Virus record (IMG/VR): IMGVR_UViG_3300020200_002792
Source: a virus
Lineage: Duplodnaviria; Heunggongvirae; Uroviricota; Caudoviricetes
Length of the DNA: 64,000 bases
Reading direction: 5' to 3' (one strand)
Of this stretch, positions 374-58,465 are shown piece by piece. The notes under the pieces were generated by a model. It worked only from the letters and a program-made list of their open reading frames with translations. It had not been told where the DNA came from and ran no database searches. How positions within the stretch are numbered: the first letter of the stretch is position 1; each line of letters begins with the position of its first letter. Position numbers and translations under genes: made by a program.

Positions 374-1117
374 CTATTTTAATTCCTTAAATGCCCATTT
401 CTTTATTATAGTTTCCCACTTCTTTTTTGGTTTTACAGCAGTAACATCAACAAAAGTCCAGCCACCCGATCCAGTGCTAGCCTGTGCATTATTCTTTTCC
501 ACTAAGCCCCTCAAAGAATTCTTTTCTTGTGGGGTTAATTCTTTATCTAGCTTGTCAATAACTTCATCCGAATCTGGAAGTGTATCGTGCAAGTCTACAG
601 TATGCAATCCAGCAGGTATTTTGGGCAATAAATTGTAGTAAAATTCAAATGACTCATTAGTTGGCAATCCAGGCTTATCCTTGAATACTGTATCAACCCA
701 ACAAAGTTCATTGCTGTTTTTTATTTTCAACCTATCAAAGCCAAAATTGTTAACTAAGGCATGGTTCACTACAATATCTAAGGTAACATTTTTGGCTTCT
801 GTAACCTGCCCACCAATGCGTTTGCCATGATTTAAAATTACATGTAGACATTCATGGGCAATTACAAATAAGCGTTCATATGGAGTTTTTTCTTCCCAGA
901 ACTTAGGATTAAATAAAAATTCTAGGAATTCGCCCTGCTTGTTGAAACGTACTGCTGCTGTTTCAATACTATCAGTGAAAATAGGACGCCCCATCAGCCA
1001 ACATTGGTAAAAAATGGCGTGATGGATTTCCAAATCTTGACTGATGCCGATCCAGTCTTCTTTTGTTATATCCATTAGAATAAAATGTATCCAGCATTCT
1101 TCATTTTGTCCATGCAA
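374..1117 (-). CDS. DUF2201_N-like putative zinc metallopeptidase domain protein
   Basis: HExxH in a conserved context (VIAHECLHVILNHG). It sits between a MoxR-type AAA ATPase and a VWA ORF, as in MoxR-VWA(DUF2201) systems. Confidence 0.5.
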   Translation of the reverse strand: MHGQNEECWIHFILMDITKEDWIGISQDLEIHHAIFYQCWLMGRPIFTDSIETAAVRFNKQGEFLEFLFNPKFWEEKTPYERLFVIAHECLHVILNHGKRIGGQVTEAKNVTLDIVVNHALVNNFGFDRLKIKNSNELCWVDTVFKDKPGLPTNESFEFYYNLLPKIPAGLHTVDLHDTLPDSDEVIDKLDKELTPQEKNSLRGLVEKNNAQASTGSGGWTFVDVTAVKPKKKWETIIKKWAFKELK

Positions 1118-2484
1118 TAATCATAATGTTTGTAGAATGGTAACATACCTGATGCAGTGAAAAGCTTTTTAAATTCACTTTCACTTAATAAAGCGGAACC
1201 TGATGTAGAAATAGTTTGGCAACGGATATTATCTATCAATGTTTTAGCTAATGGGCATAATGCTGCTGTTTTTCTTTTTAAATATTTTTCACTGGTGCTT
1301 TTGACACATTTCATAAAAATTAGAAATGCGTCTTGAGCTTCTATTAAACTCATATTTGCTGGATAGGATGCAACTAATGTGTCAAAAATTGCCCGCCTAT
1401 GTTGGGTAGTAGTTGTAATTGCTGACTTTAATTGCGATATAGTGGTTGCCCATTTTGATGCTTTGTGTTTATCAAAATAAGTAGAAGGCATCGCTTTTTT
1501 AATTTTAAATATCAAAGAATTGTTGGTATTAGCATCGATTATTTCTTTGATTAGATCATTGTAGCACTTTGATGTCGCCTTTTTTTCTGATTCTAAAATA
1601 AATTCCCTGATTTTATTATTAGCTGAAAATAAACAAGATAGTTTTTCTTTTGGTATTAAAGGTAAAAAGAATTCCATCCAACTGCGATGAAATTCTAATT
1701 TGCATGAAGTAAAATTGTTTTCAATAGCCAAAAATTGTCTCGCCGCCTCGGTATTTTTATCTTCTATGAATTTCCAAAGCTTGTCATCTACAGGACCATT
1801 TTTCAAAACACTAAGAAGACTGCCTGGATTGCAACCCTTTGGCAGAACGTCCCTTACATCTCCACCTAAGTTAAACATTTTTAAAGCATAATCAAGCGTT
1901 CTTGGATCAACTAATTTTTTAATTTCAGCAGGAAGTTTTTGCCACCATGCAACAGCAGAATTTGCCAATGATGCGTTGTACGCTTGTGTAAAATAAGCTT
2001 TAGATGGTTCAGAAGGAACATTGAATTTTACATGAAATCTACCTTTTTGAGCCGGGTCTAATTCCTCTACTTGGTACTCTTCAGTATCCTCTGGATTGAT
2101 CGCCGCCCAAACAACTTTGAGATTGTTAAATTTTCTGCCGTTGATGGATTTAAATTGAATTAATTCCATTACGGCGTTACGGACTTTCTTTTGACTTCTG
2201 TTAAATTCATCAAAAAATAGTGCATCAATGTTATCGTCACGAAGTTCTTTGGGTAAAACTAGTTCCAAATAACCACCTTTGTCATCTTTGGCTTCCTTTG
2301 GGATTCCAATAAAATCTACCCAAGGGTCCATTGTTGAGGCACTGAAGTATTTGTATTTTAACTTTGCTCGTCCAAAAGCTGCTAAAACACGACTAGTCTT
2401 TCCTACCCCATGCGGCCCTATTAGCAGCACGTTGAGGTTATTAGCAAGCCAAAAATCTAATTTTTCGTCTCTGAGTTCAGCCAT
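1075..2484 (-). CDS. MoxR/AAA_5-family ATPase with a ~250 aa C-terminal extension
   Basis: Walker A LLIGPHGVGKTS; Walker B ALFFDEFNR; sensor-like NLKVVWAAINP. AAA_5 architecture. Confidence 0.7.
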   Translation of the reverse strand: MAELRDEKLDFWLANNLNVLLIGPHGVGKTSRVLAAFGRAKLKYKYFSASTMDPWVDFIGIPKEAKDDKGGYLELVLPKELRDDNIDALFFDEFNRSQKKVRNAVMELIQFKSINGRKFNNLKVVWAAINPEDTEEYQVEELDPAQKGRFHVKFNVPSEPSKAYFTQAYNASLANSAVAWWQKLPAEIKKLVDPRTLDYALKMFNLGGDVRDVLPKGCNPGSLLSVLKNGPVDDKLWKFIEDKNTEAARQFLAIENNFTSCKLEFHRSWMEFFLPLIPKEKLSCLFSANNKIREFILESEKKATSKCYNDLIKEIIDANTNNSLIFKIKKAMPSTYFDKHKASKWATTISQLKSAITTTTQHRRAIFDTLVASYPANMSLIEAQDAFLIFMKCVKSTSEKYLKRKTAALCPLAKTLIDNIRCQTISTSGSALLSESEFKKLFTASGMLPFYKHYDYCMDKMKNAGYILF

Positions 2485-4592: not shown

Positions 4593-4927
4593 TTCCTTCA
4601 ACCAACTCTTCTGCCTGTACCTTCCAATGTTCTTTCAATTGGTCTTTAAATGACACACAATCATCTACGAACTCATTACATATACTTTTGTCGCCAAAAA
4701 TAACACCTATCGCCATTATTATATACCTAATGAAAATTACATGCAAAGCAAATAATAAAATGCAAATAATCTCAACCATTAGCTGCCTCTATTTCGGATT
4801 CTTCTTCACTTATAATGGTTACGGGCGGGCAATTCTCTTCGTAAAAGACTGAAACAATAAATTACTTGAATCCTTTCTGGCAACACACCAACTGTAGGGC
4901 TACGACTCCCATGCTAGTGGATGGTAA

Positions 4928-6052
4928 ATGTCTAAAGCTTTTATTACTGTTGGTCCTGAAGGTAAAAGCCATACCTTTTCTCAATTCGGCTCAGGTACAC
5001 TTGCAAATGTGCCAACCTACTTAGGCCCTAATGTCGTAGTTTGGCCAGAAGCACTCCTTAAAGAAGCCCAGCACTTGCTAGAAATTGGCCTCAGTTATCC
5101 ATTAAAGAGCGTATCTATTGATTCTAAATGCCTTATTACGACTGCATATCATAGAGCATTAAATAGATTAAGAGAAATAAAACGTGGGTTCGTTAGACAT
5201 GGCTCTTGTGGACACGGAATTGCTGAAACAAGAAAATATTGGCTTAAATACAACCAAGATTCTATTTTCGCAAAAGACCTTAAATTTCCTCATGTTCTAG
5301 AAGAAAAATTAAATCTGATCCGCCAAAGAATATTACTTGAAATACAGGAAATACAATTATCTCAAACAGAATCTGTAACAGAACAACTTGAAGTTTTTGA
5401 CTTGCCAATTAAAAAAATGGCAAAAAAACTATGGCAAACTAATTTAAAGATCGTAGAACAAATACCAAATTACAGGACAGCAGTATTTGAAGGTGCCCAA
5501 GGCGTTCTTCTGGATGAATGGTTTGGATTTTTTCCTTATGTAACCAGATCAACTGTAACTTCCAAACATGCTCATGAATTAATTACAGAAGGAGATGAAG
5601 TTACAACTATAGGTTGTATCAGACCTTATGCCACAAAACATGGAGCAGGCCCGCTTCCTAATGAAGATAAAGAATTAACAAAACATGTAAATGACACTGG
5701 TAATCCCTGGAATCAATGGCAAGAAAATTTCAGAACAGGATGGTTAGACCTGGGGTTACTTAAATATGCTCTTGATATAGAAAAAGTTGATTGCTTGGCG
5801 GTTAGCTGTATTGACCATTTAGAAAATTATCAAGAAACTCGTCTTTATGATGGTGCCTTCGATTTCAGTAAGCCAAAGTATAATATAAGGTTAATGGAAT
5901 CAAACACAGAAATATTAAAATCAACAAGACATAAGGGACATTTTATAGCCTTAGATGAATTACTAGAAAGAATAGCAATTGTCCCTATTGGCATCGAAGG
6001 AAGAGGTCCAACCTGGAAAGATAGGAAATCTAATGTATACCAAAACTTGTAA
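4928..6052 (+). CDS. adenylosuccinate synthetase family protein (PurA/PurZ-like) with degenerate N-terminal catalytic motifs
   Basis: FEGAQGVLLD...FPYVTRSTVTS (PurA GAQG...TYPYVTSS), HGAGPLPNE (VGAGPFPTE), RTGWLD. The GDEGKGK P-loop is GPEGKSH, the GGHNAGH block is absent, and IGTTGRGIGP is HGSCGHGIAE. 374 aa versus ~430 for PurA. Confidence 0.55.
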   Translation: MSKAFITVGPEGKSHTFSQFGSGTLANVPTYLGPNVVVWPEALLKEAQHLLEIGLSYPLKSVSIDSKCLITTAYHRALNRLREIKRGFVRHGSCGHGIAETRKYWLKYNQDSIFAKDLKFPHVLEEKLNLIRQRILLEIQEIQLSQTESVTEQLEVFDLPIKKMAKKLWQTNLKIVEQIPNYRTAVFEGAQGVLLDEWFGFFPYVTRSTVTSKHAHELITEGDEVTTIGCIRPYATKHGAGPLPNEDKELTKHVNDTGNPWNQWQENFRTGWLDLGLLKYALDIEKVDCLAVSCIDHLENYQETRLYDGAFDFSKPKYNIRLMESNTEILKSTRHKGHFIALDELLERIAIVPIGIEGRGPTWKDRKSNVYQNL

Positions 6053-6260
6053 TGAAAATGGAAGAATAATTTACGAAAAATATCAAAGCTGGTATGATGT
6101 ACTCCTGGATGGATATAAAATGAGTCTAATGTTCATCCTTGTAGGAATGATAGGTTTAGCCATAACTCCAATTATGGTAATAATCAATTTTTATAGACCT
6201 AAATGTATAGGCTCTGGGTCTGTAAAACCACAAACGGATCATGAATATCATTGTTTATGA
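6036..6260 (+). CDS. small hydrophobic protein (questionable)
   Basis: Internal Met of ORF 5979..6260. Hydrophobic stretch LMFILVGMIGLAITPIMVIINF. Fills the PurA-like/MetRS gap. Confidence 0.25.
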   Translation, partial: YTKTCNENGRIIYEKYQSWYDVLLDGYKMSLMFILVGMIGLAITPIMVIINFYRPKCIGSGSVKPQTDHEYHCL

Positions 6261-7783
6261 GCAAATTTTTTCTTACTACAGCTATTGATTATCCAAATAG
6301 TCTACCCCATATCGGTACTGCCTTTGAAAAAATTGGTGCTTATGTTCAGGCTAGATATCGTCGTTTCAAAGGCGATGATGTATTTTTCCTAATGGGGAAT
6401 GATGAAAATACATGGAAGGTTGCCAAACGTGCTAATGAATTAGGAGAAGAACCTAAAGCATATGTTGATCGCATGGCTTTAGAATTTAAGAAAACTTGGA
6501 ACGCCCTTAATATATCTTATGATGATTTTATTCAAACTACCGAAAAAAGACATATTCAAGGAGTAGACTTTTTTCTGAGACGTGTTATTGATCAAGGATT
6601 CGTTTATAAAAAACAATATAAAGGACTTTATTGTGAAGGTTGCGAAGCCTTTAAAACCACAAAAGAAATTGAAGAAGGCCATTGTATAAATCATAAAAAT
6701 CAAGAACTTAAAGAAATAGAAGAAGAGAATTATTTTTTCAAGCTAAGTGAATTTAAACAACCTTTAATTGATTTGTTGACTTCAAAGCAATTATTAATAC
6801 AGCCGGAATCTCGTTACAACGAAATCATGTCTGTCCTTAATGATGACCTAGAAGATATTTCAATAAGCAGGCGAAATCTAGGATGGGGGATACCTTTTCC
6901 TGGTGATCCTAGCCAGGTCGTCTATGTCTGGTTTGATGCATTGCTTAATTACATGACAGGTTGCGGTTATCCTAATAAGTCTGAATGGTGGCCTGCTGAT
7001 ATTCATTTTATTGGCAAGGATATCACTCGCTTTCATTGTTTGATCTGGCCAGCAATGATCTTAGCTTACAATACCAAATCACCTGAAATAGCACAGCCAA
7101 AGGCAGTCTTTGCTCATGGTTTTGTTAAGAACAGGGGCACAAAAATAGGCAAATCTACAGGTAATTTTGTAGACCCGCTTGAAATTGTTAAGGAATTTGG
7201 TTGTGATGCTTATCGTTACTACTTCCTAAGCCGCTGTGATTATGGAAGCGATGGCGAATATGACCGTAAACACTTCATTGAAGTTTATAACGCAGATTTA
7301 GCAAATAATTTAGGAAATCTCCTCAGTCGTGTTATTAGCATGACAATTAAATACTTTAAAGGAGATATAAGTATATCTAACTATAAACCACGTAACATAA
7401 GTGGTTGTGATGATTACTGCAAAAACATAGAAGAATGCGAATATAAAGTTGTGCTGGAAAAAATCTGGCATATATTTAGTCTTATGAATGCTTACGTTGA
7501 TGAAAATAAACCTTGGGCACTAATCAAGGAAGATAAACAAAAAACAGCAGGTGTTTTATGTGAGCTAATAAATGGATTGCGATTAATGGCTATCCTTCTA
7601 AAACCTTTCCTACCAGATACGTCTCGTAAAATATATGAATCATTTAACTTTGGATATCCTTGGAGAAAATTAACATTAGATTCTTTTTCTTCAGACTATA
7701 ATTCAAGTAATAACATTAACATAATTGCTGTGGATAAACCATCTTCTTTATTCCCAAAATATGAAATAGAAACAGCTATATAA
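6251..7783 (+). CDS. metG: methionyl-tRNA synthetase catalytic core; no C-terminal tRNA-binding extension
   Basis: HIGH-type motif YPNSLPHIGTAFE; zinc knuckles CEGCE...GHCINH; KMSKS-type KIGKSTGN; WPADIHFIGKDI. Confidence 0.8.
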   Translation: MFMSKFFLTTAIDYPNSLPHIGTAFEKIGAYVQARYRRFKGDDVFFLMGNDENTWKVAKRANELGEEPKAYVDRMALEFKKTWNALNISYDDFIQTTEKRHIQGVDFFLRRVIDQGFVYKKQYKGLYCEGCEAFKTTKEIEEGHCINHKNQELKEIEEENYFFKLSEFKQPLIDLLTSKQLLIQPESRYNEIMSVLNDDLEDISISRRNLGWGIPFPGDPSQVVYVWFDALLNYMTGCGYPNKSEWWPADIHFIGKDITRFHCLIWPAMILAYNTKSPEIAQPKAVFAHGFVKNRGTKIGKSTGNFVDPLEIVKEFGCDAYRYYFLSRCDYGSDGEYDRKHFIEVYNADLANNLGNLLSRVISMTIKYFKGDISISNYKPRNISGCDDYCKNIEECEYKVVLEKIWHIFSLMNAYVDENKPWALIKEDKQKTAGVLCELINGLRLMAILLKPFLPDTSRKIYESFNFGYPWRKLTLDSFSSDYNSSNNINIIAVDKPSSLFPKYEIETAI

Positions 7784-8077: not shown

Positions 8078-9544
8078 TCAACCTTCTTGGGCGGTGGGAT
8101 AGTCTAAAACAAACCTCATTTGCCCTGCATCCCAGATTCTGTCATATCCATTTAGTTGCATGATTTCCCATTCTTTCAAATTTTTGTCATAAAATGGCAT
8201 GCTAATAAGATTCTTTTTTTGAAAACTTAGCCTACTGTGCATTGTATTGTTTCTTATATTAAAGTATGAAAAACTAGGGCGGCTCACTCCATCAAACTTA
8301 AATCCAATAGCTTTGTATAACTTTCCTTGTGAATAACGTCTGTCAGCGTAAGTAATGATGCTGCCTTTATATTTAGTCCTAAAATGATTTAAAAGTTTAC
8401 TTGCACCACCAACTACAGATGTGAAATTTTTAGTGCAGAATCTAATCATTTCATATTTGTAACTTCTGTTAAAACGACTCCCATCAAATGTCATGCAAGC
8501 AACAATATTGCCATTATACTCTAATCCATATTTTATTTTGGCGTTGTCTGGACCTTGAATGTGATTTATTGTTAAAAACTCTTCCGTTTCATACCTTTTT
8601 AATTCAACAATTTTTGTCTTTCTTGCATAAATTTTATTGCTTTTGCCCAATAAGTTAATTACTTTAGACTTGATTATGTCTTTTTTATCTTCCCATTCTG
8701 TACTGTATATTTGCACTAAATTTATATTTTTTCCCAAGGCTGCATTGCATTTGTTATAATGATACTTTCTGCCTCTTACTGTTTCTAAATGCCAATATAT
8801 TCCATGATATTCAAATCCCAAATTTAGTTCTGGAAGGTAAATATCAATTTCTTTATCTTCTAATATTTTCCTATCATTTTGCAGTATCGTTCCATTATAA
8901 TTTTCTTTAATGTATTCGTATATTTCTTTCTGTGGTTGAGAAATTTTTATTATGGCCCCACATGAAGGACAACCATTCTTTAAATGAATGTGATTCCCGG
9001 CTCTTTGTTCAAAATCTCCATGAATCGGGCATGTTATAATTATTTTATCTGACATCCTAACGAAAACTGTTTTTGCATAACTATATTTGTTTTCATGGAT
9101 GACATTAGCTATATTGATGAGAGATGTTAGTGAATGTTTGCTTATTCCTCTGCCATTACAGAATTGGCATCCGTGCTTTAAATGTTGAGTTGGCAATTGA
9201 TGCTGGATACCGTGCTTTTCGCAAATGTATTTAATTTTAGTTTGTTTATTTTTATATTCGGTAATTGAATAATTATACTTGTTTCCCCATTTATCTTTTG
9301 CTTGATTTATAAATTGCTCATTAGTTTTTTGTAATGGGTGTTTTCTTTTTTCAATTCCACATTTATAACACCCTTGTTTTTGGTGTATATGTGCATAAGG
9401 CAATATTTCAAAAATGCCATGTTTACATTTTATTTTAACTTTGGTATGTGCGTTAACGTATTCAGTTAAACTATAATCGTAAACAGAGCCATGCACCGCT
9501 ATAGCTTCAGAAATAAAAACAGGGGTTGTCTTTTTATTAGACAT
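8078..9544 (-). CDS. homing-endonuclease-like protein: three zinc-ribbon repeats, a Vsr/DUF559-type nuclease core, and an unknown C-terminal domain
   Basis: Three repeats of KxxCxxHGxF...HLxxGCxxCxG. Then LPELNLGFEYHGIYWH...R...NxxK...LGKNINLV, resembling the Vsr/DUF559 restriction-endonuclease-like core. Confidence 0.45.
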   Translation of the reverse strand: MSNKKTTPVFISEAIAVHGSVYDYSLTEYVNAHTKVKIKCKHGIFEILPYAHIHQKQGCYKCGIEKRKHPLQKTNEQFINQAKDKWGNKYNYSITEYKNKQTKIKYICEKHGIQHQLPTQHLKHGCQFCNGRGISKHSLTSLINIANVIHENKYSYAKTVFVRMSDKIIITCPIHGDFEQRAGNHIHLKNGCPSCGAIIKISQPQKEIYEYIKENYNGTILQNDRKILEDKEIDIYLPELNLGFEYHGIYWHLETVRGRKYHYNKCNAALGKNINLVQIYSTEWEDKKDIIKSKVINLLGKSNKIYARKTKIVELKRYETEEFLTINHIQGPDNAKIKYGLEYNGNIVACMTFDGSRFNRSYKYEMIRFCTKNFTSVVGGASKLLNHFRTKYKGSIITYADRRYSQGKLYKAIGFKFDGVSRPSFSYFNIRNNTMHSRLSFQKKNLISMPFYDKNLKEWEIMQLNGYDRIWDAGQMRFVLDYPTAQEG

Positions 9545-18945: not shown

Positions 18946-19464
18946 TCATAATTTATTTAGTCCGGTCGAACCAAAACCGCCTTCTGATCGTGCTGTATCG
19001 TCAACCATTCCTTCAATAAAATCAACATAAGTCCTAGCTCTAGGTATTATTTGAACATACCTGCCAGGAAGGTCTAAAGGAAAATAAAAACGCTCCTTGT
19101 CTGTATTGCTAAAATTATACATTACAACCAATATTTCGCCCCTATAACTCTCATCTATGATCCCTATTGAATTAGCTAACATCCTTCCAGACTTAAACAA
19201 AGAACTTCTTGCTACTAAATTAAAATAATATCCAGGTGACGGCTTAATCTTAATTCCAGTCCCATAAACCTCTATCCTGTCATTAACCTGCTTTAAGTCC
19301 AATAAAGTTAAATCATAGCCAGAATCAGATTCATGCTTTTTAAATGGTTCAACCGCATCTTCTCTAATTTTCTCCCAAATAACCTGTTTTGCCTCTAATT
19401 TACGCAAATCTGCACAAAAATTAGGCAAAATAGATGTTACCTCACCTTTTTTCGATTTTGCCAA
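18946..19464 (-). CDS. dut: dUTP diphosphatase
   Basis: dUTPase motifs ARSSL, GIIDESYRGE and RSEGGFGSTG. Confidence 0.8.
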   Translation of the reverse strand: MAKSKKGEVTSILPNFCADLRKLEAKQVIWEKIREDAVEPFKKHESDSGYDLTLLDLKQVNDRIEVYGTGIKIKPSPGYYFNLVARSSLFKSGRMLANSIGIIDESYRGEILVVMYNFSNTDKERFYFPLDLPGRYVQIIPRARTYVDFIEGMVDDTARSEGGFGSTGLNKL

Positions 19465-20768: not shown

Positions 20769-21812
20769 TCAAGCCATCTTCTTAGAAAATTCACTTACAG
20801 AGACAGAAGGATACTTTTCTTCCATTTCTGCTAATTTCTCAACTGCACTTTTATAGTCTTTTTTAATATTTTTAGGTATTTCTAGAATGGGCCTGATGAC
20901 AATATCCCCTAATTTCTTATTATTGAATACAGGAACACCTAGATTTTTTAATACTATAGGATCAAGGCTTCCAGGCTTAATTTCAAATTTTAATTTTTCA
21001 TTTTTCAAATCTTTAATATTTAGTTTTGCCCCAAAAACCAATTGCGAAAAAGTAACAGGAAAATCTACAATAAGATTTCCACCTTCACGCTGAAAGAAAG
21101 GATGGTCTTTTACAATAACAATAAGAAACAAATCACCAGGATTACGCCCAGGCACTTTAGATGGTTCGCCTTCGCCTGGAATCCTGATTTGCATGCCAGA
21201 ATCTATACCAGCAGGAATATCGACATTAATATTCTTATGGCCAGAAACTTTAAAGCCACTTCCAGTGCATTCCTTACAATCGACTGCACTTTCTCTACCT
21301 GTTCCTGCACATTCTTTACAAGTTTGAAATATTTTAAAAGGAGGTTGAACGACAAATTGTTTACCGCTACCTGAACATGTTTTACATCCAACCCAATCAG
21401 TGAAACCTTTGCCTTCGCATTTATCGCATTTAGAATATTGATTAACTTTAACACTTCTAGGGCATTGAACCAATATATCTTTTAATTCAAGTTCTACTTT
21501 GCATTGTATATTGCGGCCTTTTTGACTACCTCCACCAAACATACCCTCAAAGATTGAATCGAAATCAGGGAATGGGTTAGCTCTATGATGGTGATGCTTA
21601 CCTACTGTGCCAAAACTATCATATTCTGCCTTTTTATTGGCATCAGATAGGATTTCATAAGCTTCACTAACTTCTTTGAATTTAGTTGCTGCTGCTTCAT
21701 CCCCTGGATTTCTATCAGGATGGAACTGTAAAGCTAACTTTCTGAAAGATGATTTAATTTCATCTTCAGTGGCAGTTTTACTTATCCCAAGGACATCATA
21801 AGGGTTATTCAT
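20769..21812 (-). CDS. dnaJ: DnaJ (Hsp40) type I co-chaperone
   Basis: J-domain with HPD (YDVLGI...FHPDRN); G/F region; four CxxCxGxG zinc-finger repeats. Confidence 0.85.
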
Positions 21813-22345: not shown

Positions 22346-23182
22346 TTATACTACGACTCTACCTTTTAATTCTTCCCAATCTTTTTCTGGCCTTACTTCA
22401 AGATTCTTTTCCCACACACCATTCATAACCTTTGGGTCAATACTCAACTCCTTAGCCAAACACATTAAAGCGTTTAAATCTTTAGGGAAACATGCAAGGC
22501 CAAATCCACACTTAGAATCCGGTCCAGGCACAGCCCAATGCGATGTTCCTAAACGCTTATCTTTTGTACTATATTCCACAACTTTATCATAGTCAATGCC
22601 AAGTTTTTGACATATTTGGTATATTTCATTAGCAAAAGAAACCTTTGTGGCTAAAAAACAATTTGTTACATATTTAACCATTTCAGCTATAGTCGAACTA
22701 GTTTTTGTAGTAGGAACATCTGGATAAGCTTGTTGATACATTTGTTTTACGACATCAACAGCATCATGCGGCCCACCAATAATAATCCTGTCTTGTTTCG
22801 CAAAATCCTCTAAAAAATTTGCTTCCCTTAAAAATTCTGGATTAAATACACATTTTACATGCTTTGATTTATTATTTATTCTTTCAGTGGTTCCAGGAAC
22901 AATCGTAGACTTTATAATTACTATTTGTTCTTTTCCTACAGCATCTATTTCATCTATAACGCTTTCGACAATACTAGTATCACATGATCCATCTTCTTTC
23001 ATTGGAGTAGGAACACAAACAAAAATTGGCCCATCAACTGCATCAACTAATTCAGCAACAGAAAATATAGAAGAATCAATAGGTTTTATGTGCCTGTCAT
23101 AAAAAAACACTTCAAATGCATGATTCATTCCAGAAATAACAGCATTGCCAACAAAGCCTTTGCCTATGACACCAAGTTTCAT
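22346..23182 (-). CDS. UDP-glucose/GDP-mannose 6-dehydrogenase family protein, truncated at the start of the C-terminal UDP-sugar-binding domain
   Basis: IGKGFVGNAV; VCVPTP; KSTIVPGTT; FNPEFLREANF; GFGLACFPKD (catalytic Cys). Ends at ...LKGRVVV, where the C-terminal domain of Ugd would begin. Confidence 0.6.
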   Translation of the reverse strand: MKLGVIGKGFVGNAVISGMNHAFEVFFYDRHIKPIDSSIFSVAELVDAVDGPIFVCVPTPMKEDGSCDTSIVESVIDEIDAVGKEQIVIIKSTIVPGTTERINNKSKHVKCVFNPEFLREANFLEDFAKQDRIIIGGPHDAVDVVKQMYQQAYPDVPTTKTSSTIAEMVKYVTNCFLATKVSFANEIYQICQKLGIDYDKVVEYSTKDKRLGTSHWAVPGPDSKCGFGLACFPKDLNALMCLAKELSIDPKVMNGVWEKNLEVRPEKDWEELKGRVVV

Positions 23183-29441: not shown

Positions 29442-30188
29442 TTAATTCTTTTGCGACAGACCCATTTCAGCTTTCATCTTATCCAAAACTTCCTTAGCTT
29501 CTTCTCTCCTAAGGGACTCTTCAGCTTCAATTTCTTCCAAGCCAACTCTGGAAAGTTCTCTTGATACTTGAGACTTGCCACGGTTAACATCGATTTGCCT
29601 TTGAATTTCGGCTTCAACTTCTCCAAGGCCATCAAATTGGTTAACCTTCATATCAAATCTTTCTGCTAAACTAGCCGTTTCAGCATCAACTTTACTAAGG
29701 CGAAGTTCTGCCTGCAACCTTCTAGCTTTCTCATTAGCATCCGTAATTTTTTGCTTGGCATATTGAATTTTCTTTAAGTTATTTTGGAAAGTTTCATTTA
29801 CCAAGGAAAGTTGCTGACTCTTTTCTTGCAAATCACCTTCAGCTTTTTTAAGTTGAATAGCATATTCGGAAGCTCTATTCTCGTCGCCAGTAGTCAAGGA
29901 ACTTTTAACCTTAACTGTTAAAAGTTCCACATCCTTCTTACCATTAGTTATAGCTCTTTTCATGCTTTCAACCAATGCACTATATTCATCCAAGCCTTTT
30001 CTAGCATCACTTAATTCTTCAGCGGCCCTATCGACTTCGCTTTGGTAGACAGCCACAGGATCAGCCCGCCAAATAAACCTAGAAAGTTTACCAAATTGCG
30101 CACCTAAAGCCGCCAAAATGCGCATCACATTTCTTCGTTGTGTCAAAAACAATACTACTACTACACCCACAATAATCCATGTCGTCAT
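29442..30188 (-). CDS. PspA/IM30-like coiled-coil protein with an N-terminal TM segment
   Basis: TM helix, then MRILAALGAQFGKLSRFIWRADPVAVYQSEVDRAAEEL and long heptad coiled coil, as in PspA/Vipp1. Confidence 0.45.
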   Translation of the reverse strand: MTTWIIVGVVVVLFLTQRRNVMRILAALGAQFGKLSRFIWRADPVAVYQSEVDRAAEELSDARKGLDEYSALVESMKRAITNGKKDVELLTVKVKSSLTTGDENRASEYAIQLKKAEGDLQEKSQQLSLVNETFQNNLKKIQYAKQKITDANEKARRLQAELRLSKVDAETASLAERFDMKVNQFDGLGEVEAEIQRQIDVNRGKSQVSRELSRVGLEEIEAEESLRREEAKEVLDKMKAEMGLSQKN

Positions 30189-37018: not shown

Positions 37019-38200
37019 GTGAGGTTTAATATGACTCCAGGACAAACAAAAGCATGTATCATTAGTGGTATTGTAATATTTTTACTTTTATTCGTATGGT
37101 TCTTCTTCGTTCCACCTTATAATACACCAAAATTTCAAGCAATTGACAATAACCAAACAGGATTCTTAGTCCCATTGGATCAAGGAACATCAGATCAAGC
37201 CCATTTTGAATCAGCAGCCTTCTTAAAAGATAGAAAAGTTGCTACAAAAAGAGTGCAAATACATAGAAGATGGGTACAACAAGGATGGCTTTATACCACA
37301 GGTGAATATCTTGACACAGAAAGATTAATCGTAGTTGATAGAAGCCCTGTTATTAGAGAATGGGCAGAATCAGATGAAGGAAAAACTGATGATTCACTTA
37401 GGGCACAAACTAAAGATGGAACAGGACTTAAATTAAATTTTACTTGCACAGCTTATATTCCTGAGTCTGACCAAAATAATGCAGAAGGTGCAGAACACTT
37501 CCTTTATTATTACAAAGGAGACAATTTAGCACATGTTATGGACAAAGAAGTAAAAGCCAAAGTGCAAGCTGTGGCTTCTGAATTTACTGCACAATACCCT
37601 CTAGAAACTCTTCGTGGAACACAGCACAAACTTGTAGAAGCAGTTAGAGAAGATGTAATACCATTTTTCAAGAAAAGAGGTATTTCAATAACTAATATCG
37701 GTATGGTAGGAGGATTTCATTACGTAAACAGACAAATCCAGAAATCTATTGACGATGCTATCAGTGCCCAACAATTAAAAATAGCAGCACAAGCTATGCA
37801 AGAAAAAGAAAAGGTAGAACAACAAACAAAACTTTATAATCAAGAAATTTATAATAAAACAATGGTATTAGAAGCAGAAGGTAAAGCAAAAGCCGCTGTA
37901 GCACAAGCAGAGGGTGAAGCCAAAGCTAAATTAGCAGCAGCACAAATTGATGCAGAAGCAGCCAAACTAAGAGCAAGCGGTGAAGCAGCAGCAATAAAAA
38001 TCCAAGCTGATGCGGAAACATATAAATATAAGCTATATGACCAGTTCAAAGATATGATTATATCTCTAAAAAATATAGAATTGGAAAAAGCTTGGAAAAC
38101 ACAATGGAATGGTTCTGTACCAAGTATGATTCTGCAAGGTACATCGCAATCAGGACTTATGCCTATATTTCCATTAAATTTAGATAAAAGTCATAAATAA
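37019..38200 (+). CDS. SPFH/band-7 (flotillin/HflK-like) membrane protein
   Basis: N-terminal TM; SPFH core; Ala/Glu-rich coiled coil EAEGKAKAAVAQAEGEAKAKLAAAQIDAEAAKLRASGEAAAI. Confidence 0.6.
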   Translation: MRFNMTPGQTKACIISGIVIFLLLFVWFFFVPPYNTPKFQAIDNNQTGFLVPLDQGTSDQAHFESAAFLKDRKVATKRVQIHRRWVQQGWLYTTGEYLDTERLIVVDRSPVIREWAESDEGKTDDSLRAQTKDGTGLKLNFTCTAYIPESDQNNAEGAEHFLYYYKGDNLAHVMDKEVKAKVQAVASEFTAQYPLETLRGTQHKLVEAVREDVIPFFKKRGISITNIGMVGGFHYVNRQIQKSIDDAISAQQLKIAAQAMQEKEKVEQQTKLYNQEIYNKTMVLEAEGKAKAAVAQAEGEAKAKLAAAQIDAEAAKLRASGEAAAIKIQADAETYKYKLYDQFKDMIISLKNIELEKAWKTQWNGSVPSMILQGTSQSGLMPIFPLNLDKSHK

Positions 38201-41334: not shown

Positions 41335-44300
41335 TCAGCAAACAAGTTCATGTTCGCTCCTCAAAACACAAAGCCTAATATCATCTTCTTTACGTTTGGC
41401 TACCTTATGTCTTTCCCATTTAGGAGGACTTTCAAAAGTAAATCTCCTAAAGCCACCTGACGGCCCCTTTAACCTCATCCTTAACAACTTGCCTGGAATT
41501 ATTTCTTCTTTAAATCTTTCAAAGTCTTCTTTCCATACCTGAATCTGTTGCATTTCGCTATTTGCATCCTCTGCTTCGACTAACCAATATGTGTTGTTTT
41601 TCTTAGACATCATGCTCTTGACAGTCAAAATCCTTAATTCAACAGGATTATTTTCCTCTATACATACTTTAAAATCTTCAAATGTCATCCCACCACAATA
41701 GTCAGGACTCTTAGAAAGAGGATGATCCCATAAAAACCCATAATAAGCAAGTTGGGATGCTTCTAAAGATTCATAGTTTTCAAGAATCTTGTCAGCTATT
41801 TCATATTCTTCAGAAACAAAAGGTTTTTCTTCCAAACCAGTCTTAGAAGTTTCCAATCCTCTATAATAATTCTTTAAAACTGTCAAACCTTTCTTCAAAC
41901 TGTTCTTCATACAATAATCATAAATTTCCTTATTGTTATCTGGAAAATGCCATAACTCCTCTGGGACGATTGCCTCAATTTGTTCCTTCAATTCCTTTTG
42001 TCTTCTAATCCACCGCCTTCTTTTTTCATCAATTCTCTTCCTAGACTTCTTAACCCATTCAGCATACTTCAATAAATGGACAACATCTTCGCCAAAAATT
42101 CTAAGACCAATCAAAGGTTTAAGAACTGCCGTATCCGTACCAAATTTATTCAAAAAGTCATCAAAATCATTATAGGGTTGGTTATCTACTACCCTTTGGA
42201 CTACAGCATCTCCAATCCCAACAATATTAGAAATTCCATAATATATTTCTTCATCAACAATAGCTGCTTTAGCTTTAGATTTGCTAATATCGATTGGATT
42301 TACCTTGATATTATGCAATTCAGCTTCCATTTTGTATTCTTTGAGTTTGTCAACCTTATCTTCACAAACAAGACTAGATGTATAAAACTCAATTGGATAA
42401 TGAGCTTTAAAATAAAGAAGCCGCATAGCAATAACACAGTAACCGCAAGAATGACTATTATGGACTAGAATGCCATTAGCAATATAATTATGATTATTTT
42501 TAATACAAATATCATAAGTTTTATCTTTGCCGCATTTCTTAATTGATTTTACTTGCGTCCAAAAAATATTACTGTTAACTATTTTCAATAATTCAACATG
42601 CTTAAAAGTTTTAGCAATTATTTCAATAGTTTTTCTTAAAAAAGACTTCTTGTTTTTATCTTTCAAAAGAATTCTATGAGTCAGTCCACATTTATCTAAG
42701 CAATATCTGCCATACGACTTTCTAATTTCAAGGAGATAAGGCATTACAAGATTATATGGCAGCATATCACGTTCGTTACAGAAGATACTATATTTATAGA
42801 GAAAACTTTGATCACATTTTTTAGAACACATATATTTGCCTATACTTTTAGCAAATCTTTCCCTCCAATTATACCCTCCAACTTTAACTATATAACCTAT
42901 TTTTCTCATTCCCCGATAATTAAAAAATTTCTTATTTAACACAGAAACAAAACCTATTCTGAGCAAAAGTTCTTGCACTTGCTCTGCTAATTTCAAAGAA
43001 GATGTGGCATAGTAAGTGTTGCTTCTATCTACACATCCATCCCCTTCCCACATTCGTCCAAGCAATAACATGATTTGCTTAGAAGATAATTGAAAAACCC
43101 AATCAGGTAAAAATTTTTGAGGAGCTTTTTTCCAACACAAATCATTTTTCCTGGCCCATTGCAACAAATTAGTGGGAACATATTTTTTATAACTTCCAGA
43201 ATGGCCTGAATTAATACAGATTACCCACTTATCTTTGTAGTATTGCTTAGTAATATGAGACTTTCCAAATTTCTTAGCTGCCTTTACAAAATCATCAACA
43301 TAAAATTCATCTTGATTAAAAAAATACAAAGAACTAGGATGACAGGTATTACCTTCTGTAATTAAACCAGCTAAAACTATCAGTTCATGACTTTCAACTT
43401 TATGAGTGGCTACACAATCTCTTTTGGAAGGTAAAGCTACCCAATCACCAAGCTTCAAATCACTTAAAGGAATCCATCCTATATCAGTTAAAAATTTATG
43501 TTTTTCTGTACATTTAATAGCATGGTGAGATTTAGTGATTAATTCAAAAATTGATTTTTCACCATTATCAAAAACATCTTCTATAACAGATATTTCAAAT
43601 TTGCCATTCTTATCTAAAGAACCAGTCTTCATTCCCTTTTTAGCTTCACGGACCTTAAATGGTATTCCAAATTCATCGTATAAAACAGAATCGCCATGCA
43701 AGCACTTGTTGAAGCTGTACCCACTAAATGCCTCTATTTGAGTCCAAAATTCATTCATCTTTTCCAAACTATATCCCAATCGTTTCATGCCATTCTCAAT
43801 GAAACGATTTTTATAAGTCTGGAATAAATCAAGCCTCTTTTTGGATATAGCTTTTCTGACAATCTCACAATCTTTTAATGGCACATCACCTATTTGATTC
43901 AATATTCGCATGATTTGTTCTTGATAGATCATACAACCATAAGTTTCTCCCAAAATAGGTTTCAAAAGAGGATGAAGTCCATAAGCTTCACCCTTTTTTC
44001 TTTTTATATAAACTTCTGATTGTGCAATGGCCCCTGGACGATAAACGCTAAGATACGCCATCAAATCATTGAACCCATCAACACCGCCTTTTTTAACCAA
44101 TTGTCTCATGCCTTCGCTATCAAACTGAAATATGCCTCTTAAATCTGCTTTATTTGCCATTTCAATCGATTTAGGAGCATTCAAATAAGAAGTATCTGAC
44201 CAATCTTTCTTTCCAGGCTTTGCACAAATACTAGTTAAACCATGTCTATCTTTTACTAATTTTTTAGCTATAGCTATTTGTTTTAAATTAGACAAAGACA

Positions 44301-45048
44301 ACAAATCAAACTTAACCAAACCAACAGGCCCTAAATCCTGACCATGTAAACCTTCCACCCAAGCTGTACAAGGCAAATCATCTTTGTCTTTAACCAATGG
44401 GACAAAATTATTGATAGGTTTGCTGGATATAATTAATCCTCCAGCATGCTTACCCATACTATTGTTTCTATGCAAAAGCTTTTTAGCCGCTGTTGCTACT
44501 TCTGGATGATCCTCACAATACTTCTTCATTTCTGGAAATAACTCAACAGCTTTATCCCAGGTTAATGTTTTGCCTTCATCGTCCTTTAAACCCAATTTTT
44601 TAGTTACAGCCGTTACTTCATCTTTATCACAACTATACACTCTGGCCATATTTTGAAGTGCTGATTTAATGCCGAAAGTGTTATAGCTACCAATATTGGC
44701 TACAAATTCTTGGCCATAAAATTTTGGTGCCCAGATGTTCTTCAGATAATCTCGAACTTCTGGAAGAAAGTCGCAGTCCGAATCAGGCATGTCACCGTAA
44801 ACGTAGGTAGGCTCTTTGTCTATCTCTAAATCGTCTACTATGCCTAAAAGATATGGGATTAAGAGGTTTTTTTGATTATAAGGATATCTGATTTGCTTTT
44901 TGTGTAAATCTAGAAAATAATCATGCTTGTTTTGAGCATCTATTTCTTTTAATTCCAGGGCTAATCTCTTAGTATACTTCTCTTCTTTAAGCCCTTTACT
45001 TTCTAACCTAGCATTTAGAATTATAATCAATTCATCTTTAGCTTCCAT
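41335..45048 (-). CDS. dnaE: DNA polymerase III alpha (DnaE), C-terminal part; contains an intein. DnaE-homologous start is Met87 (44788..44790); aa 1-86 are a degenerate duplicate of an N-half segment
   Basis: MGKHAGGLIISS (AGKHAGGVVIAP), GLVKFDLLSLSNL (GLVKFDFLGLRTL), GIFQFDSEGMRQL...YRPGA (GVFQLESRGMKDL...FRPGP), FSGYSFNK[intein]SHSCGYCVIAMRLLYFKAHYPIEF ([32 protein letters not shown]). MPDSDCDF matches MPDFDVDF. Confidence 0.85.
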   Translation of the reverse strand: MEAKDELIIILNARLESKGLKEEKYTKRLALELKEIDAQNKHDYFLDLHKKQIRYPYNQKNLLIPYLLGIVDDLEIDKEPTYVYGDMPDSDCDFLPEVRDYLKNIWAPKFYGQEFVANIGSYNTFGIKSALQNMARVYSCDKDEVTAVTKKLGLKDDEGKTLTWDKAVELFPEMKKYCEDHPEVATAAKKLLHRNNSMGKHAGGLIISSKPINNFVPLVKDKDDLPCTAWVEGLHGQDLGPVGLVKFDLLSLSNLKQIAIAKKLVKDRHGLTSICAKPGKKDWSDTSYLNAPKSIEMANKADLRGIFQFDSEGMRQLVKKGGVDGFNDLMAYLSVYRPGAIAQSEVYIKRKKGEAYGLHPLLKPILGETYGCMIYQEQIMRILNQIGDVPLKDCEIVRKAISKKRLDLFQTYKNRFIENGMKRLGYSLEKMNEFWTQIEAFSGYSFNKCLHGDSVLYDEFGIPFKVREAKKGMKTGSLDKNGKFEISVIEDVFDNGEKSIFELITKSHHAIKCTEKHKFLTDIGWIPLSDLKLGDWVALPSKRDCVATHKVESHELIVLAGLITEGNTCHPSSLYFFNQDEFYVDDFVKAAKKFGKSHITKQYYKDKWVICINSGHSGSYKKYVPTNLLQWARKNDLCWKKAPQKFLPDWVFQLSSKQIMLLLGRMWEGDGCVDRSNTYYATSSLKLAEQVQELLLRIGFVSVLNKKFFNYRGMRKIGYIVKVGGYNWRERFAKSIGKYMCSKKCDQSFLYKYSIFCNERDMLPYNLVMPYLLEIRKSYGRYCLDKCGLTHRILLKDKNKKSFLRKTIEIIAKTFKHVELLKIVNSNIFWTQVKSIKKCGKDKTYDICIKNNHNYIANGILVHNSHSCGYCVIAMRLLYFKAHYPIEFYTSSLVCEDKVDKLKEYKMEAELHNIKVNPIDISKSKAKAAIVDEEIYYGISNIVGIGDAVVQRVVDNQPYNDFDDFLNKFGTDTAVLKPLIGLRIFGEDVVHLLKYAEWVKKSRKRIDEKRRRWIRRQKELKEQIEAIVPEELWHFPDNNKEIYDYCMKNSLKKGLTVLKNYYRGLETSKTGLEEKPFVSEEYEIADKILENYESLEASQLAYYGFLWDHPLSKSPDYCGGMTFEDFKVCIEENNPVELRILTVKSMMSKKNNTYWLVEAEDANSEMQQIQVWKEDFERFKEEIIPGKLLRMRLKGPSGGFRRFTFESPPKWERHKVAKRKEDDIRLCVLRSEHELVC
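42457..43704 (-). mobile_element. LAGLIDADG intein in DnaE at the GYGFNK/SHS site (416 aa)
   Basis: Starts CLHGDSVLYD, ends ILVHN followed by S. LAGLIDADG blocks ELIVLAGLITEGNT and LLLGRMWEGDGCV. Junction codons checked against the DNA. Confidence 0.8.
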
Positions 45049-49381: not shown

Positions 49382-50041
49382 TTACCTCTCATACTTGTAA
49401 TTATCCACAAAATCTTTCAAGTGCTTCTCGTAGTCTGTAAGTTCTCCAAGAGCAAACCGTGGTGCTAATAAATCGCAATAATTTGCCAGTGTTTTGCAAG
49501 CGTGTTCATAACTGTTATAAATACCTGGATATTCTGATCTTTCATTAATATGCTTATTTCGGGCATTATCCAACCAATCATTTATGGGAACAAGCATTTT
49601 TTGCCAGCTTCCATTCCTGTGCATTGACCAGCCTGGAGATTCGACGTTCCAATGGAAGTAATCTTCACCTTCGTTACAAAAAAGATCGAAACCATCAGCG
49701 AGTGCTTGTAGTAATTCGGCATCCGTGAGATACTTGCGAGGGTGCTTCTTGTCCCAGGCTTCTTGACGACGATCATCCCATATCTTCTCATACTTCTTGT
49801 ACAAATTTTTCTCATCATCCCAATAACCATAGATAGTCCACTGCCCTGGCCACAAATGACGTGCTGATTCTTTAATCTCAACGTGCCATATCTCTTTCAA
49901 CCACTGCAAGTATGCTGGGTCTTTCCAACGTGATTCATCTTTGCCCCAAGGGTTGTTGTTGTTTTCCATGCTATTATTACAGTTAAATTGGGTCCAAGTT
50001 CTCAAATTCCAAACTAATACTTTTACCGCCTCTAGCTTCAC
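49382..50041 (-). CDS. W-rich hypothetical protein
   Basis: 219 aa with many W/K/D residues. Overlaps the dnaE N-half stop by 59 nt. Confidence 0.3.
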   Translation of the reverse strand: MKLEAVKVLVWNLRTWTQFNCNNSMENNNNPWGKDESRWKDPAYLQWLKEIWHVEIKESARHLWPGQWTIYGYWDDEKNLYKKYEKIWDDRRQEAWDKKHPRKYLTDAELLQALADGFDLFCNEGEDYFHWNVESPGWSMHRNGSWQKMLVPINDWLDNARNKHINERSEYPGIYNSYEHACKTLANYCDLLAPRFALGELTDYEKHLKDFVDNYKYER

Positions 50042-55618: not shown

Positions 55619-57232
55619 TCATTTATAATCATCGTATTCAAGTCGTTTCATTACAACAGTATCTTTATCTGCATCCTTGCCAACACACAAGAATACAACT
55701 TCATCGCCACCATAATTTCTACTAGCAAGCACAATTTCACTGCCCCATAAAGAATACAAAGCAGTCATTGTTTCCCTAGTATATCTTTCTTCTAACATCC
55801 TGCCATCCCAAACATGTTGTAAAAGCATCCAGCCTTTATTTCTGTGATTAGGATCGGTTAATCTTATATCAGGAAGACCTCTATTTAACTTACTTCTTAC
55901 TAAATTATTCTTAATTTTCTTGAAACTTTCTGGCGTATCCCCTCTGTTTTCAATAACATGATCACCATTAGGCTGTCTCTTCCATTCAAAGAACTCGTAC
56001 TTCTGGCAGAAATCTTGTGTGAAAAATTCATTAATCAACATCACATCATCATAATATTTCCTAACTTCAAATACTTTTTCCCTACCTTTACCCAACTTTT
56101 CATCCCAATTTTCTTTTTTATTCAAATCTCGACAATTTTCCCATTCATCTCCAAATTTACCTTTATCCCATCTATCTTCTATATCCATAAGAAGTTGGAA
56201 CCCAAGTCTATACGGATTAGCACCATATTTGTCACCTAAAACCATCATTTTGTGTTTTGCATATTCAATAATACCACATCCATAATTTGTACCAATCATA
56301 TCTGCCCAACCACGGCGGCACATCATGTCAAAATCGCCATAACTTGCAAATCCCTCATTAATTGTCTTAGTCATTCCTTGAGGACTAAAATACAAAGCTT
56401 CATCATAAAGCATGCTTGCAATATCAGCTTGCCACGGTTTTAGAGGAGCATAATTCTTTATAAAACCAAATATATCCTTTTCTGGTTCGGCAAAAATACC
56501 CAAATCCTTAATTTTATCAATATGCTTTATTCTTTCATCTTCTTTTTCTTTAAATTCTTTGGTATTAAAATAAGGTTCCATGTAATCATGACCCACAGGC
56601 ACCATTACTCTTCTTGGCAACTCATATTCTTTTTTATCTTGAATAATTGGTTCTTGAATTTGTCTTTCATCCCATATCTTTACTGGATCAATCAATGTTT
56701 CAATTGCCAAAATATTATCAATAAATTCAAAAACCGTCTCTGCTCCGTATCTGTCAATATATTTTCTAATTCTATTTCCGTGATTGGCCATCTTATTCAT
56801 CATGCCAGTATTTGTTGGCTTGAACACTATGTTGTTTTTAAAGAAATCATTATGAAATGTAGCATGAGCAACAACTGTAGCATTATCTAAAAGCGTATTT
56901 GAATTCAAAAGATACATTACACAAGGAGATGTGTTGATCACGATTTCGAACACTCTTTGCATGCCATATTCATAACCTTTATGAAATTCTTCGTATGCCA
57001 TTCCAAACCGCCAATGAGGATAACGATTTGGAAAGCCGTTATAAGCCACAATCTCGCTCATCTCGTCATAAGTTAGTTTTTGGATAATGGTAGGATAAAA
57101 ATCGGCACCGGCTTCACGACAGGCAACAAGAATCTTAGAAAATAAATCTTTTTCAATTTCTGTTAAGTGCTGCCCAGGAACAGTAGCATTTCCTGAAAGT
57201 AATGGGGCACCACGACCAAATTTTGAATACAT
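55619..57232 (-). CDS. SpoVR/YcgB family protein
   Basis: ADFYPTIIQKL..DEM.EIVAYNGFPNRYPHWRFGMAYEEFHKGYEYGMQRVFEIVINTSPCVMYLL matches the SpoVR N-terminal signature. Operonic with YeaH-like and PrkA-like genes. Confidence 0.7.
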   Translation of the reverse strand: MYSKFGRGAPLLSGNATVPGQHLTEIEKDLFSKILVACREAGADFYPTIIQKLTYDEMSEIVAYNGFPNRYPHWRFGMAYEEFHKGYEYGMQRVFEIVINTSPCVMYLLNSNTLLDNATVVAHATFHNDFFKNNIVFKPTNTGMMNKMANHGNRIRKYIDRYGAETVFEFIDNILAIETLIDPVKIWDERQIQEPIIQDKKEYELPRRVMVPVGHDYMEPYFNTKEFKEKEDERIKHIDKIKDLGIFAEPEKDIFGFIKNYAPLKPWQADIASMLYDEALYFSPQGMTKTINEGFASYGDFDMMCRRGWADMIGTNYGCGIIEYAKHKMMVLGDKYGANPYRLGFQLLMDIEDRWDKGKFGDEWENCRDLNKKENWDEKLGKGREKVFEVRKYYDDVMLINEFFTQDFCQKYEFFEWKRQPNGDHVIENRGDTPESFKKIKNNLVRSKLNRGLPDIRLTDPNHRNKGWMLLQHVWDGRMLEERYTRETMTALYSLWGSEIVLASRNYGGDEVVFLCVGKDADKDTVVMKRLEYDDYK

Positions 57233-57240
57233 GTTAATCC

Positions 57241-58458: not shown

Positions 58459-58465
58459 TTATAGC

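Follow-up and report, generated by a model that had tools for sequence, protein, structure and literature searches.

IMG/VR virus record IMGVR_UViG_3300020200_002792 (Duplodnaviria; Heunggongvirae; Uroviricota; Caudoviricetes) contains, in the 64,000-nucleotide stretch that we analysed (hereafter the window), an uninterrupted 374-codon open reading frame (ORF) at 4928..6052 on the plus strand whose product resembles adenylosuccinate synthetase (PurA), raising the question of whether this product is still an enzyme. A reading made from the letters of the DNA without database searches (hereafter the sequence-only reading) had described it as a degenerate member of the PurA/PurZ family that is either inactive or altered in nucleotide or substrate specificity. 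We found that the gene is a unique deletion variant of an annotated, functionally uncharacterised PurA-like subfamily of the mycobacteriophage Bxz1 gp250 type. Judging from sequence comparisons, we assign a probability of about 60% to the gene being an orphaned, catalytically dead remnant of the PurA-like enzyme of a three-gene module, or triad, that also encodes a kinase-like and a vWA-like protein.

Membership in the adenylosuccinate synthetase family was confirmed at the level of both sequence and predicted fold. The protein matched Pfam PF00709 (adenylosuccinate synthetase; E 8.7e-45, residues 7-305) and phrog_1211, and its best Protein Data Bank sequence matches were bacterial PurA (E ~1e-22). 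An AlphaFold (AF2) model of the protein reached a predicted local distance difference test score (pLDDT) of 85.6 and a predicted template modelling score (pTM) of 0.85, and its top Foldseek matches were all adenylosuccinate synthetases, with template modelling (TM) scores of 0.65-0.74 (TMq). The motifs GAQG...YVT, GAGPLP and TGWLD on which the family assignment had been based are all present and, as had also been remarked, the protein is shorter than PurA, its 374 residues falling ~40-60 below the length of its relatives.

Alignments with 68-70 relatives revealed one gap, of ~39 residues, in the window protein versus every full-length homologue. The lost block has the family consensus LGFGDEGKGATVDxLxRxxxADLVVRYxGGSQAGHNVxL, corresponds to E. 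coli Thr9-Ile45 and contains 28 of the columns conserved at 90% or more across the family; it spans the P-loop, helix 1, strand 2 and the GGSQAGH(NV) loop. In PurA this block supplies the P-loop, the catalytic base Asp13, Lys16, Asn38, the magnesium ligand Gly40 and the catalytic acid His41. At the deletion junction (4952..4957, plus strand), GGT (Gly9) is followed directly by CCT (Pro10), and ~117 nt, or 39 codons, are gone (LGFGDEGKGATVD...VVRYxGGSQAGHNVxL), so that the N-terminal MSKAFITVG runs straight into PEGKSHTFSQFGSGTL (4955..5002, plus strand). An in-frame TAA at 4925-4927 abuts the ATG at 4928 and therefore excludes an upstream-extended protein, while the N-terminus (4925..4954, plus strand, together with that stop), which forms strand beta-1, matches that of the relatives (MSKAFITVG versus MKRAFVTVG), indicating that the loss is internal. 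Residues 10-16, at the junction, are the sole low-confidence part of the AlphaFold model (pLDDT <50).

The sequence-only reading correctly noted that the catalytic Asp and His are absent and that the equivalent of the GGHNAGH block is missing, as both alignments and profile comparison indicate, but it misplaced the P-loop, taking PEGKSHTFSQFGSGTL for an altered version in which GDEGKGK reads GPEGKSH. In a profile hidden Markov model (HMM) built from 68 relatives with the query left out, window residues 10-369 align to nodes 49-417, and PEGKSHTFSQFG falls with high posterior probability on nodes 49-60 (pdGrrhtfsqfG), equivalent to E. coli N46-P56. The stretch PEGKSHTFSQFGSGTL is the counterpart of the family's PDGRRHTFSQFGAGTL, with GPEGKSH aligning to LPDGRRH of the family, which follows the missing block, and G12, H15, F17, F20 and G21 occupying invariant family columns. 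LGFGDEGKGA is the true P-loop in every full-length relative, and in the window protein it is wholly deleted. Aligning PEGKS to DEGKG instead requires two gaps versus one, and Asp13 and His41 are gone under either alignment.

We did not find the deletion in other lineages among the best 150 representatives of 1.84 billion proteins or among 120 close matches. For 149 of the 150 representatives, either the ~39-residue offset was present or the protein was truncated by start-site choice or a contig edge. Of other short homologues, P0109 is cut by a contig end, and P0228, P0233 and P0267 begin inside or just past the P-loop yet retain GGxQAxH. Separately, in the bacterial-type homologue P0016 (contig L095, 1-140), upstream in-frame sequence keeps ...VERYCSQAGHSVVLPDGRRH and the P-loop is not recognisable, which may represent a second, independent N-terminal decay.

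The altered motifs elsewhere in the protein, which had been read as degeneration, instead characterise a separate PurA-like subfamily. When 5.8 billion proteins were searched, more than 5,400 homologues with 40-55% identity came up, nearly all 410-460 amino acids long, and an exhaustive HMMER scan of 1.84 billion representatives identified 4,543 proteins at E<=1e-10. These include mycobacteriophage Bxz1 gp250 (annotated 'PurA-like adenylosuccinate synthetase') and a Rhizobium phage protein, and the subfamily is present, as a paralogue alongside the canonical purA that these bacteria also carry, in Planctomycetota, Chloroflexota, many Actinomycetota (Streptomyces, Micromonospora, Nocardia, Dactylosporangium) and Myxococcota. 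The window protein scores 464 bits against the subfamily HMM and has the invariant signatures HGSCGHGIGE (as HGSCGHGIAE), FSQFGxGTL and NPWNxWQGxxRxGW, and it lacks the full-length architecture of a GFGDEGKGA P-loop with GGSQAGHNV. On its sequence it is a member of the PurA-like subfamily, neither PurA proper nor PurZ. The observation that HGSCGHGIAE stands in place of IGTTGRGIGP was accurate; because HGSCGHGIGE is invariant across the subfamily, however, it is a family mark and not decay of this copy. In all, the sequence-only reading misinterpreted two of its three motifs. With more than 4,500 proteins, the subfamily is annotated but apparently uncharacterised in function, and our literature searches found no paper characterising it.

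Within the subfamily, the window protein resembles the Bxz1 gp250-type proteins (phrog_1211) of cluster C mycobacteriophages, Rhizobium T4-like phages and jumbo phages, with 33-55% identity over nearly the whole retained length and shared FSQFGxGTL, HGSCGHGIxE, (T/V)TxSTVT, TxHGAGPLP, NPWNxWQxxxRxGWLD, xCxDHL and GPTW motifs. It differs from them in lacking the ~39-residue block with P-loop and GGSQAGHNV that full-length members have, in lacking the upstream kinase-like and vWA-like genes found at most phage and many bacterial loci, and in the changes G109N, W207R and R237K, which are unique to it.

We then mapped the functional residues of E. coli PurA, whose roles are established in the PurA literature, onto the subfamily alignment. 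The subfamily retains G12, D13, K16, G40, H41, Q224, T239 and D333, whereas N38 is replaced by Q, T129 by C, R131 by H, R143 by Q or variable residues, S240 by W, V273 by H, T300 by W, T301 by Q and K331 by C; R303 is deleted, and R304 and R305 are non-basic. In the window protein, HGSCGHGIAE (residues 91-100; 5198..5227, plus strand, as for the motifs that follow) is the subfamily counterpart of PurA IGTTGRGIGP, with T129 changed to C and R131 to H, and FEGAQGVLLDE (residues 187-197; 5486..5518) is a conserved core motif containing Q191, the equivalent of Gln224. The PurA L-aspartate loop GATTGRRRRTGWLD takes its subfamily form NPWNQWQENFRTGWLD (residues 259-274; 5702..5749), in which Thr300/Thr301 become Trp/Gln and a single Arg is retained. 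SCIDHLE (residues 293-299; 5804..5824) is the counterpart of the PurA guanine-specificity motif TKLDVLD, with Asp333 retained as D296 and Lys331 changed to Cys, and GRGPTW (residues 358-363; 5999..6016) is the counterpart of the base-binding loop STGPDR.

Compared to PurA itself (EC 6.3.4.4; E. coli 1ADE/1GIM), which has the same fold and provides its best sequence and structure matches, the window protein still has counterparts of Gln224, Thr239 and Asp333, of the GAGP loop and of the GP base loop. The ligands of the 5'-phosphate of inosine monophosphate (IMP), Thr129 and Arg143', are replaced by C94 and Q110 (T129C, R143Q), and in the L-aspartate loop Thr300, Thr301, Arg303 and Arg305 are replaced by W264, Q265, a gap and F268 (T300W, T301Q, R303 absent, R304/R305 non-basic); these states are common to the whole subfamily. 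The window protein misses the PurA equivalog cut-offs (123.6 versus 402 bits for NF002223, 94.6 versus 395 bits for TIGR00184), as do its full-length relatives (100-176 bits). Since phosphoryl-transfer residues are kept while the IMP-phosphate and L-aspartate ligands are replaced, full-length members are probably nucleoside triphosphate (NTP)-dependent ligases that still carry out phosphoryl activation, on a substrate pair other than IMP and L-aspartate. In the window protein the whole GDEGKGK segment of PurA, with the base Asp13 and Lys16, is deleted, as is the GGHNAGH block, to which Asn38, Gly40 and the acid His41 belong. Given the established PurA mechanism, the absence of equivalents of the P-loop, Asp13, Lys16, Asn38 and His41 in the alignments would make a canonical GTP-dependent ligase impossible, and we infer that the window protein lacks ligase activity.

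The proposed link to PurZ, the N6-succino-2-amino-2'-deoxyadenylate synthase, was not supported. PurZ and PurZ0 resemble the window protein in being phage-borne PF00709 members shorter than bacterial PurA. Phage PurZ, however, is an archaeal-type short PurA defined by an intact P-loop that carries Ser at the Asp13 position (PMC12884076), whereas the window protein has no P-loop at all and is short through internal deletion of a bacterial-type protein. The family profile scored ~180 bits against bacterial PurA structures and ~112 bits against archaeal PurA, compared to 27-28 bits against the PurZ structures 6fm1 and 7odx and 23 bits against PurZ0 (7vf6). The NCBIfam PurZ model NF038379 (cut-off 300 bits; 397 bits for phiVC8 PurZ as positive control) gave no match to the window protein at E<=0.01 and 34-54 bits for full-length subfamily relatives, and the AlphaFold model superposed on PurZ/PurZ0 with TM-scores of 0.4-0.55, lower than those to PurA. 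As for the DatZ and MazZ partners envisaged for such a role, phiVC8 PurZ, DatZ, MazZ (MazG-like) and DpoZ queries had no tblastn match within the 64-kb window, itself part of a probably much larger genome, and the replicative polymerase in the window matches phrog_405 and has no similarity to DpoZ. Profile scores, the unmatched PurZ model, TM-scores and the missing P-loop all speak against PurZ identity for the window protein.

Clustering the neighbours of the PurA-like gene at 80 bacterial loci (L012-L091), we found a protein-kinase-like protein of ~340 amino acids immediately upstream on the same strand at 42 loci, often with an N-terminal J-domain (HPD motif) or zinc ribbon, and a vWA-like protein of ~330 amino acids (FDVTGSMG motif, no Pfam match), likewise immediately upstream on the same strand, at 38. 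The genes are collinear in the order kinase-like, vWA-like, PurA-like, and this triad occurs at about 40, or roughly half, of the bacterial loci. In Bxz1 the triad is gp247-gp248-(gp249)-gp250 (L001, 1397-5176), with the kinase-like protein matching phrog_3043 and the vWA-like protein phrog_2971. A phage contig (L092, 7357-11269) has the triad with a PurA-like protein, P0005, that is 50% identical to the window protein; all seven IMG/VR jumbo-phage loci with the family (L096-L102) have it as well, the PurA-like gene being full-length in each; and in Rhizobium phage RHph_Y65 the vWA-like gene lies directly 5' of the PurA-like gene. PADLOC did not recognise the triad as a known defence system, returning generic kinase matches only and none for the vWA-like or PurA-like proteins, and our literature searches found no description of the triad. 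In Planctomycetota we also observed a PurA-like paralogue near genes for ADP-ribosylglycohydrolase, NADAR, Tpt1/PTS_2-RNA, NUDIX-NrtR and NAD synthase at three loci (L008, 188-1203; L009, 1-5684; L010, 9269-10192).

Neither a kinase-like nor a vWA-like partner was found, either in the 64-kb window or in a further 5 kb preceding it that a longer contig covers. A J-domain match at 21639-21755 was considered as the kinase-like partner and ruled out, as it belongs to an ordinary DnaJ with DnaJ_C and zinc-finger domains. The nearest relative of the window protein, P0002 (on a 281-kb contig), is also without partners within 10 kb, is full-length and has unusual RxGWLD substitutions; partnership in the triad is an association and not a strict definition.

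With the P-loop block deleted and both partner genes absent from the DNA covered, a module in decay is the most economical reading, and the gene as a dead remnant of the triad's PurA-like enzyme is the one we favour. One in-frame event in a single huge-phage population, a loss of 117 nt, would have taken out everything between beta-1 and the PDGRRH turn; without P-loop, catalytic base and catalytic acid, the protein would bind no NTP phosphate and form no 6-phosphoryl intermediate. The triad module would be decaying, leaving the ORF as a recent relic or at most a non-catalytic pseudoenzyme. At positions that are otherwise invariant, the window protein carries three changes of its own (G109N, W207R and R237K), a count at the top of the range in the alignment, although three other sequences have as many, and in Tajima relative-rate tests the window lineage had more unique substitutions in 16 of 16 comparisons (p from 0.006 to 0.73). 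Several observations weigh against a decaying gene. The relative-rate test against the nearest relative P0002 was not significant, and the GC content of 35%, compared to 43-54% in relatives, possibly confounds the rate excess. The ORF is intact over 374 codons outside the deletion, with native start, beta-1 strand and reading frame preserved, and a confident PurA-like fold is still predicted. The protein keeps 103 of 118 conserved columns outside the deletion, no worse than P0002-P0005, its full-length phage relatives, each of which has 13-19 substitutions at conserved columns. Since the genome is probably much larger than the 64 kb and the preceding 5 kb that were covered, the partners or an additional intact copy could be encoded outside this region. 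A recent deletion followed by, at most, mild relaxation would account for the data, as would continued selection for a non-catalytic role.

Such a role would make the protein a functional pseudoenzyme, kept despite having no P-loop, which we regard as unlikely though plausible. Family-specific substrate-side residues (C94, H96, Q191, T206, H238, W264, Q265, R269 and D296) are kept in an intact ORF, and the confident fold prediction, the retained beta-1 strand and conservation equal to that of full-length phage relatives are what this explanation would lead one to expect; on the other side, it is a single example whose architecture is absent from the 150 representatives and 120 close matches, the loss takes two core strands and a helix and may destabilise the protein, and W207R and R237K strike residues invariant in the other aligned relatives. 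A pseudoenzyme could act as a sponge for the family's purine-type substrate or, because enzymes of the PurA family work as obligate dimers that share their active sites, by forming heterodimers that poison a host's full-length PurA-like enzyme from the triad. Homologous triads are common in bacteria that are possible hosts. Nothing marks the triad as a conflict system, however; its vWA-like and PurA-like proteins have no PADLOC match. That the huge phage uses a selected decoy, dominant-negative subunit or ligand sponge against a host kinase-vWA-PurA-like triad appears improbable. If it did, the triad would be a previously unrecognised nucleotide-based conflict or stress system.

Less credible still is continued enzyme activity with a changed nucleotide or substrate specificity, a reading that would include supplying a modified purine for phage DNA as PurZ does. 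The P-loop, Asp13 (Ser in PurZ), Lys16 and His41, which to our knowledge are required in all characterised members of the fold, are gone from the window protein, and its similarity to PurZ is marginal (27 bits, TM ~0.5) in a window with no DatZ, MazZ or DpoZ homologue. The PF00709 homology, several conserved substrate-side motifs and the presence of a dUTPase and other nucleotide-metabolism genes in the window are compatible with such activity, and phages do use PurA homologues (PurZ) for 2-aminoadenine synthesis (PMC12884076). Of the two outcomes put forward in the sequence-only reading, inactivity is accordingly the better supported, the relevant residues being physically missing, and altered specificity is scarcely supported. 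Least credible of all is an artefact, in which mis-assembly, a chimeric contig or a wrong gene call conceals a gene that is truly full-length or split. The source is metagenomic and mobile elements abound in the region (an HNH endonuclease gene at 8078..9544 and inteins elsewhere in the window), but three data sets, each assembled independently, contain the 1,125-nt gene in identical form, on contigs identical over 2.5-14 kb, which rules out mis-assembly of the short form, and the reading frame is unbroken across the junction and closed upstream by the in-frame stop. A split gene or upstream exon was likewise rejected: the N-terminal 75 residues of six relatives, searched by tblastn against all frames of the 64 kb, detected no P-loop block, the single marginal match (56365-56294, E 0.2-0.8) lying inside a SpoVR-like gene.

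Annotation pipelines give this family the labels 'adenylosuccinate synthetase' and even '2-aminooxy adenylosuccinate synthetase' (a PurZ-type name); neither can apply to the window copy, which should therefore not be used to argue for purine auxiliary metabolism or a Z-genome in huge phages. The triad is a more promising lead than the window gene itself: occurring in bacteria, mycobacteriophages and jumbo phages, it offers a tractable target for new nucleotide chemistry, for instance by way of Bxz1 gp247-250 in M. smegmatis, for which the deleted window copy could serve as a natural catalytic-null control.

The surroundings of the gene are those of a huge phage. The window encodes phage-like genes including a T4-type major capsid protein, a terminase and a split DNA polymerase, and the phage closest to it is the uncultured huge phage LR756511.1 (595 kb), with 77.7% identity between the major capsid proteins; LR756511.1 shares the capsid block, and the PurA-like and methionyl-tRNA synthetase genes are not at the syntenic position there. 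The methionyl-tRNA synthetase gene (6251..7783, plus strand; PF09334, E 1e-90) lies immediately 3' of the PurA-like gene, and the HNH endonuclease gene mentioned above (minus strand) encodes a 488-residue HNH/DUF723 homing endonuclease between the methionyl-tRNA synthetase and major capsid genes. Two large polymerase ORFs on the minus strand (41335..45048 and 49983..52547), ~5 kb apart and separated by other ORFs and a local GC rise, match different parts of phrog_405, indicating a split or interrupted polymerase.

Further downstream, a complete PrkA/YeaG - YeaH(DUF444) - SpoVR/YcgB stress-kinase module occupies 55619..61876 on the minus strand of this huge phage, its 1136-residue PrkA gene (58466..61876, minus strand) being interrupted by an intein with a LAGLIDADG endonuclease. 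Other phage-encoded genes on the minus strand are the dUTPase-like gene (18946..19464), a full DnaJ/Hsp40 (20769..21812) and a UDP-glucose/GDP-mannose dehydrogenase-like gene (22346..23182), and the window also has PspA/IM30-like (29442..30188) and SPFH/Band-7-like (37019..38200) genes. Finally, the window and JGI contig L006 differ over 6.9 kb solely by a 9-bp in-frame indel at 2374..2382, within an AAA-ATPase ORF at 1075..2484 on the minus strand.

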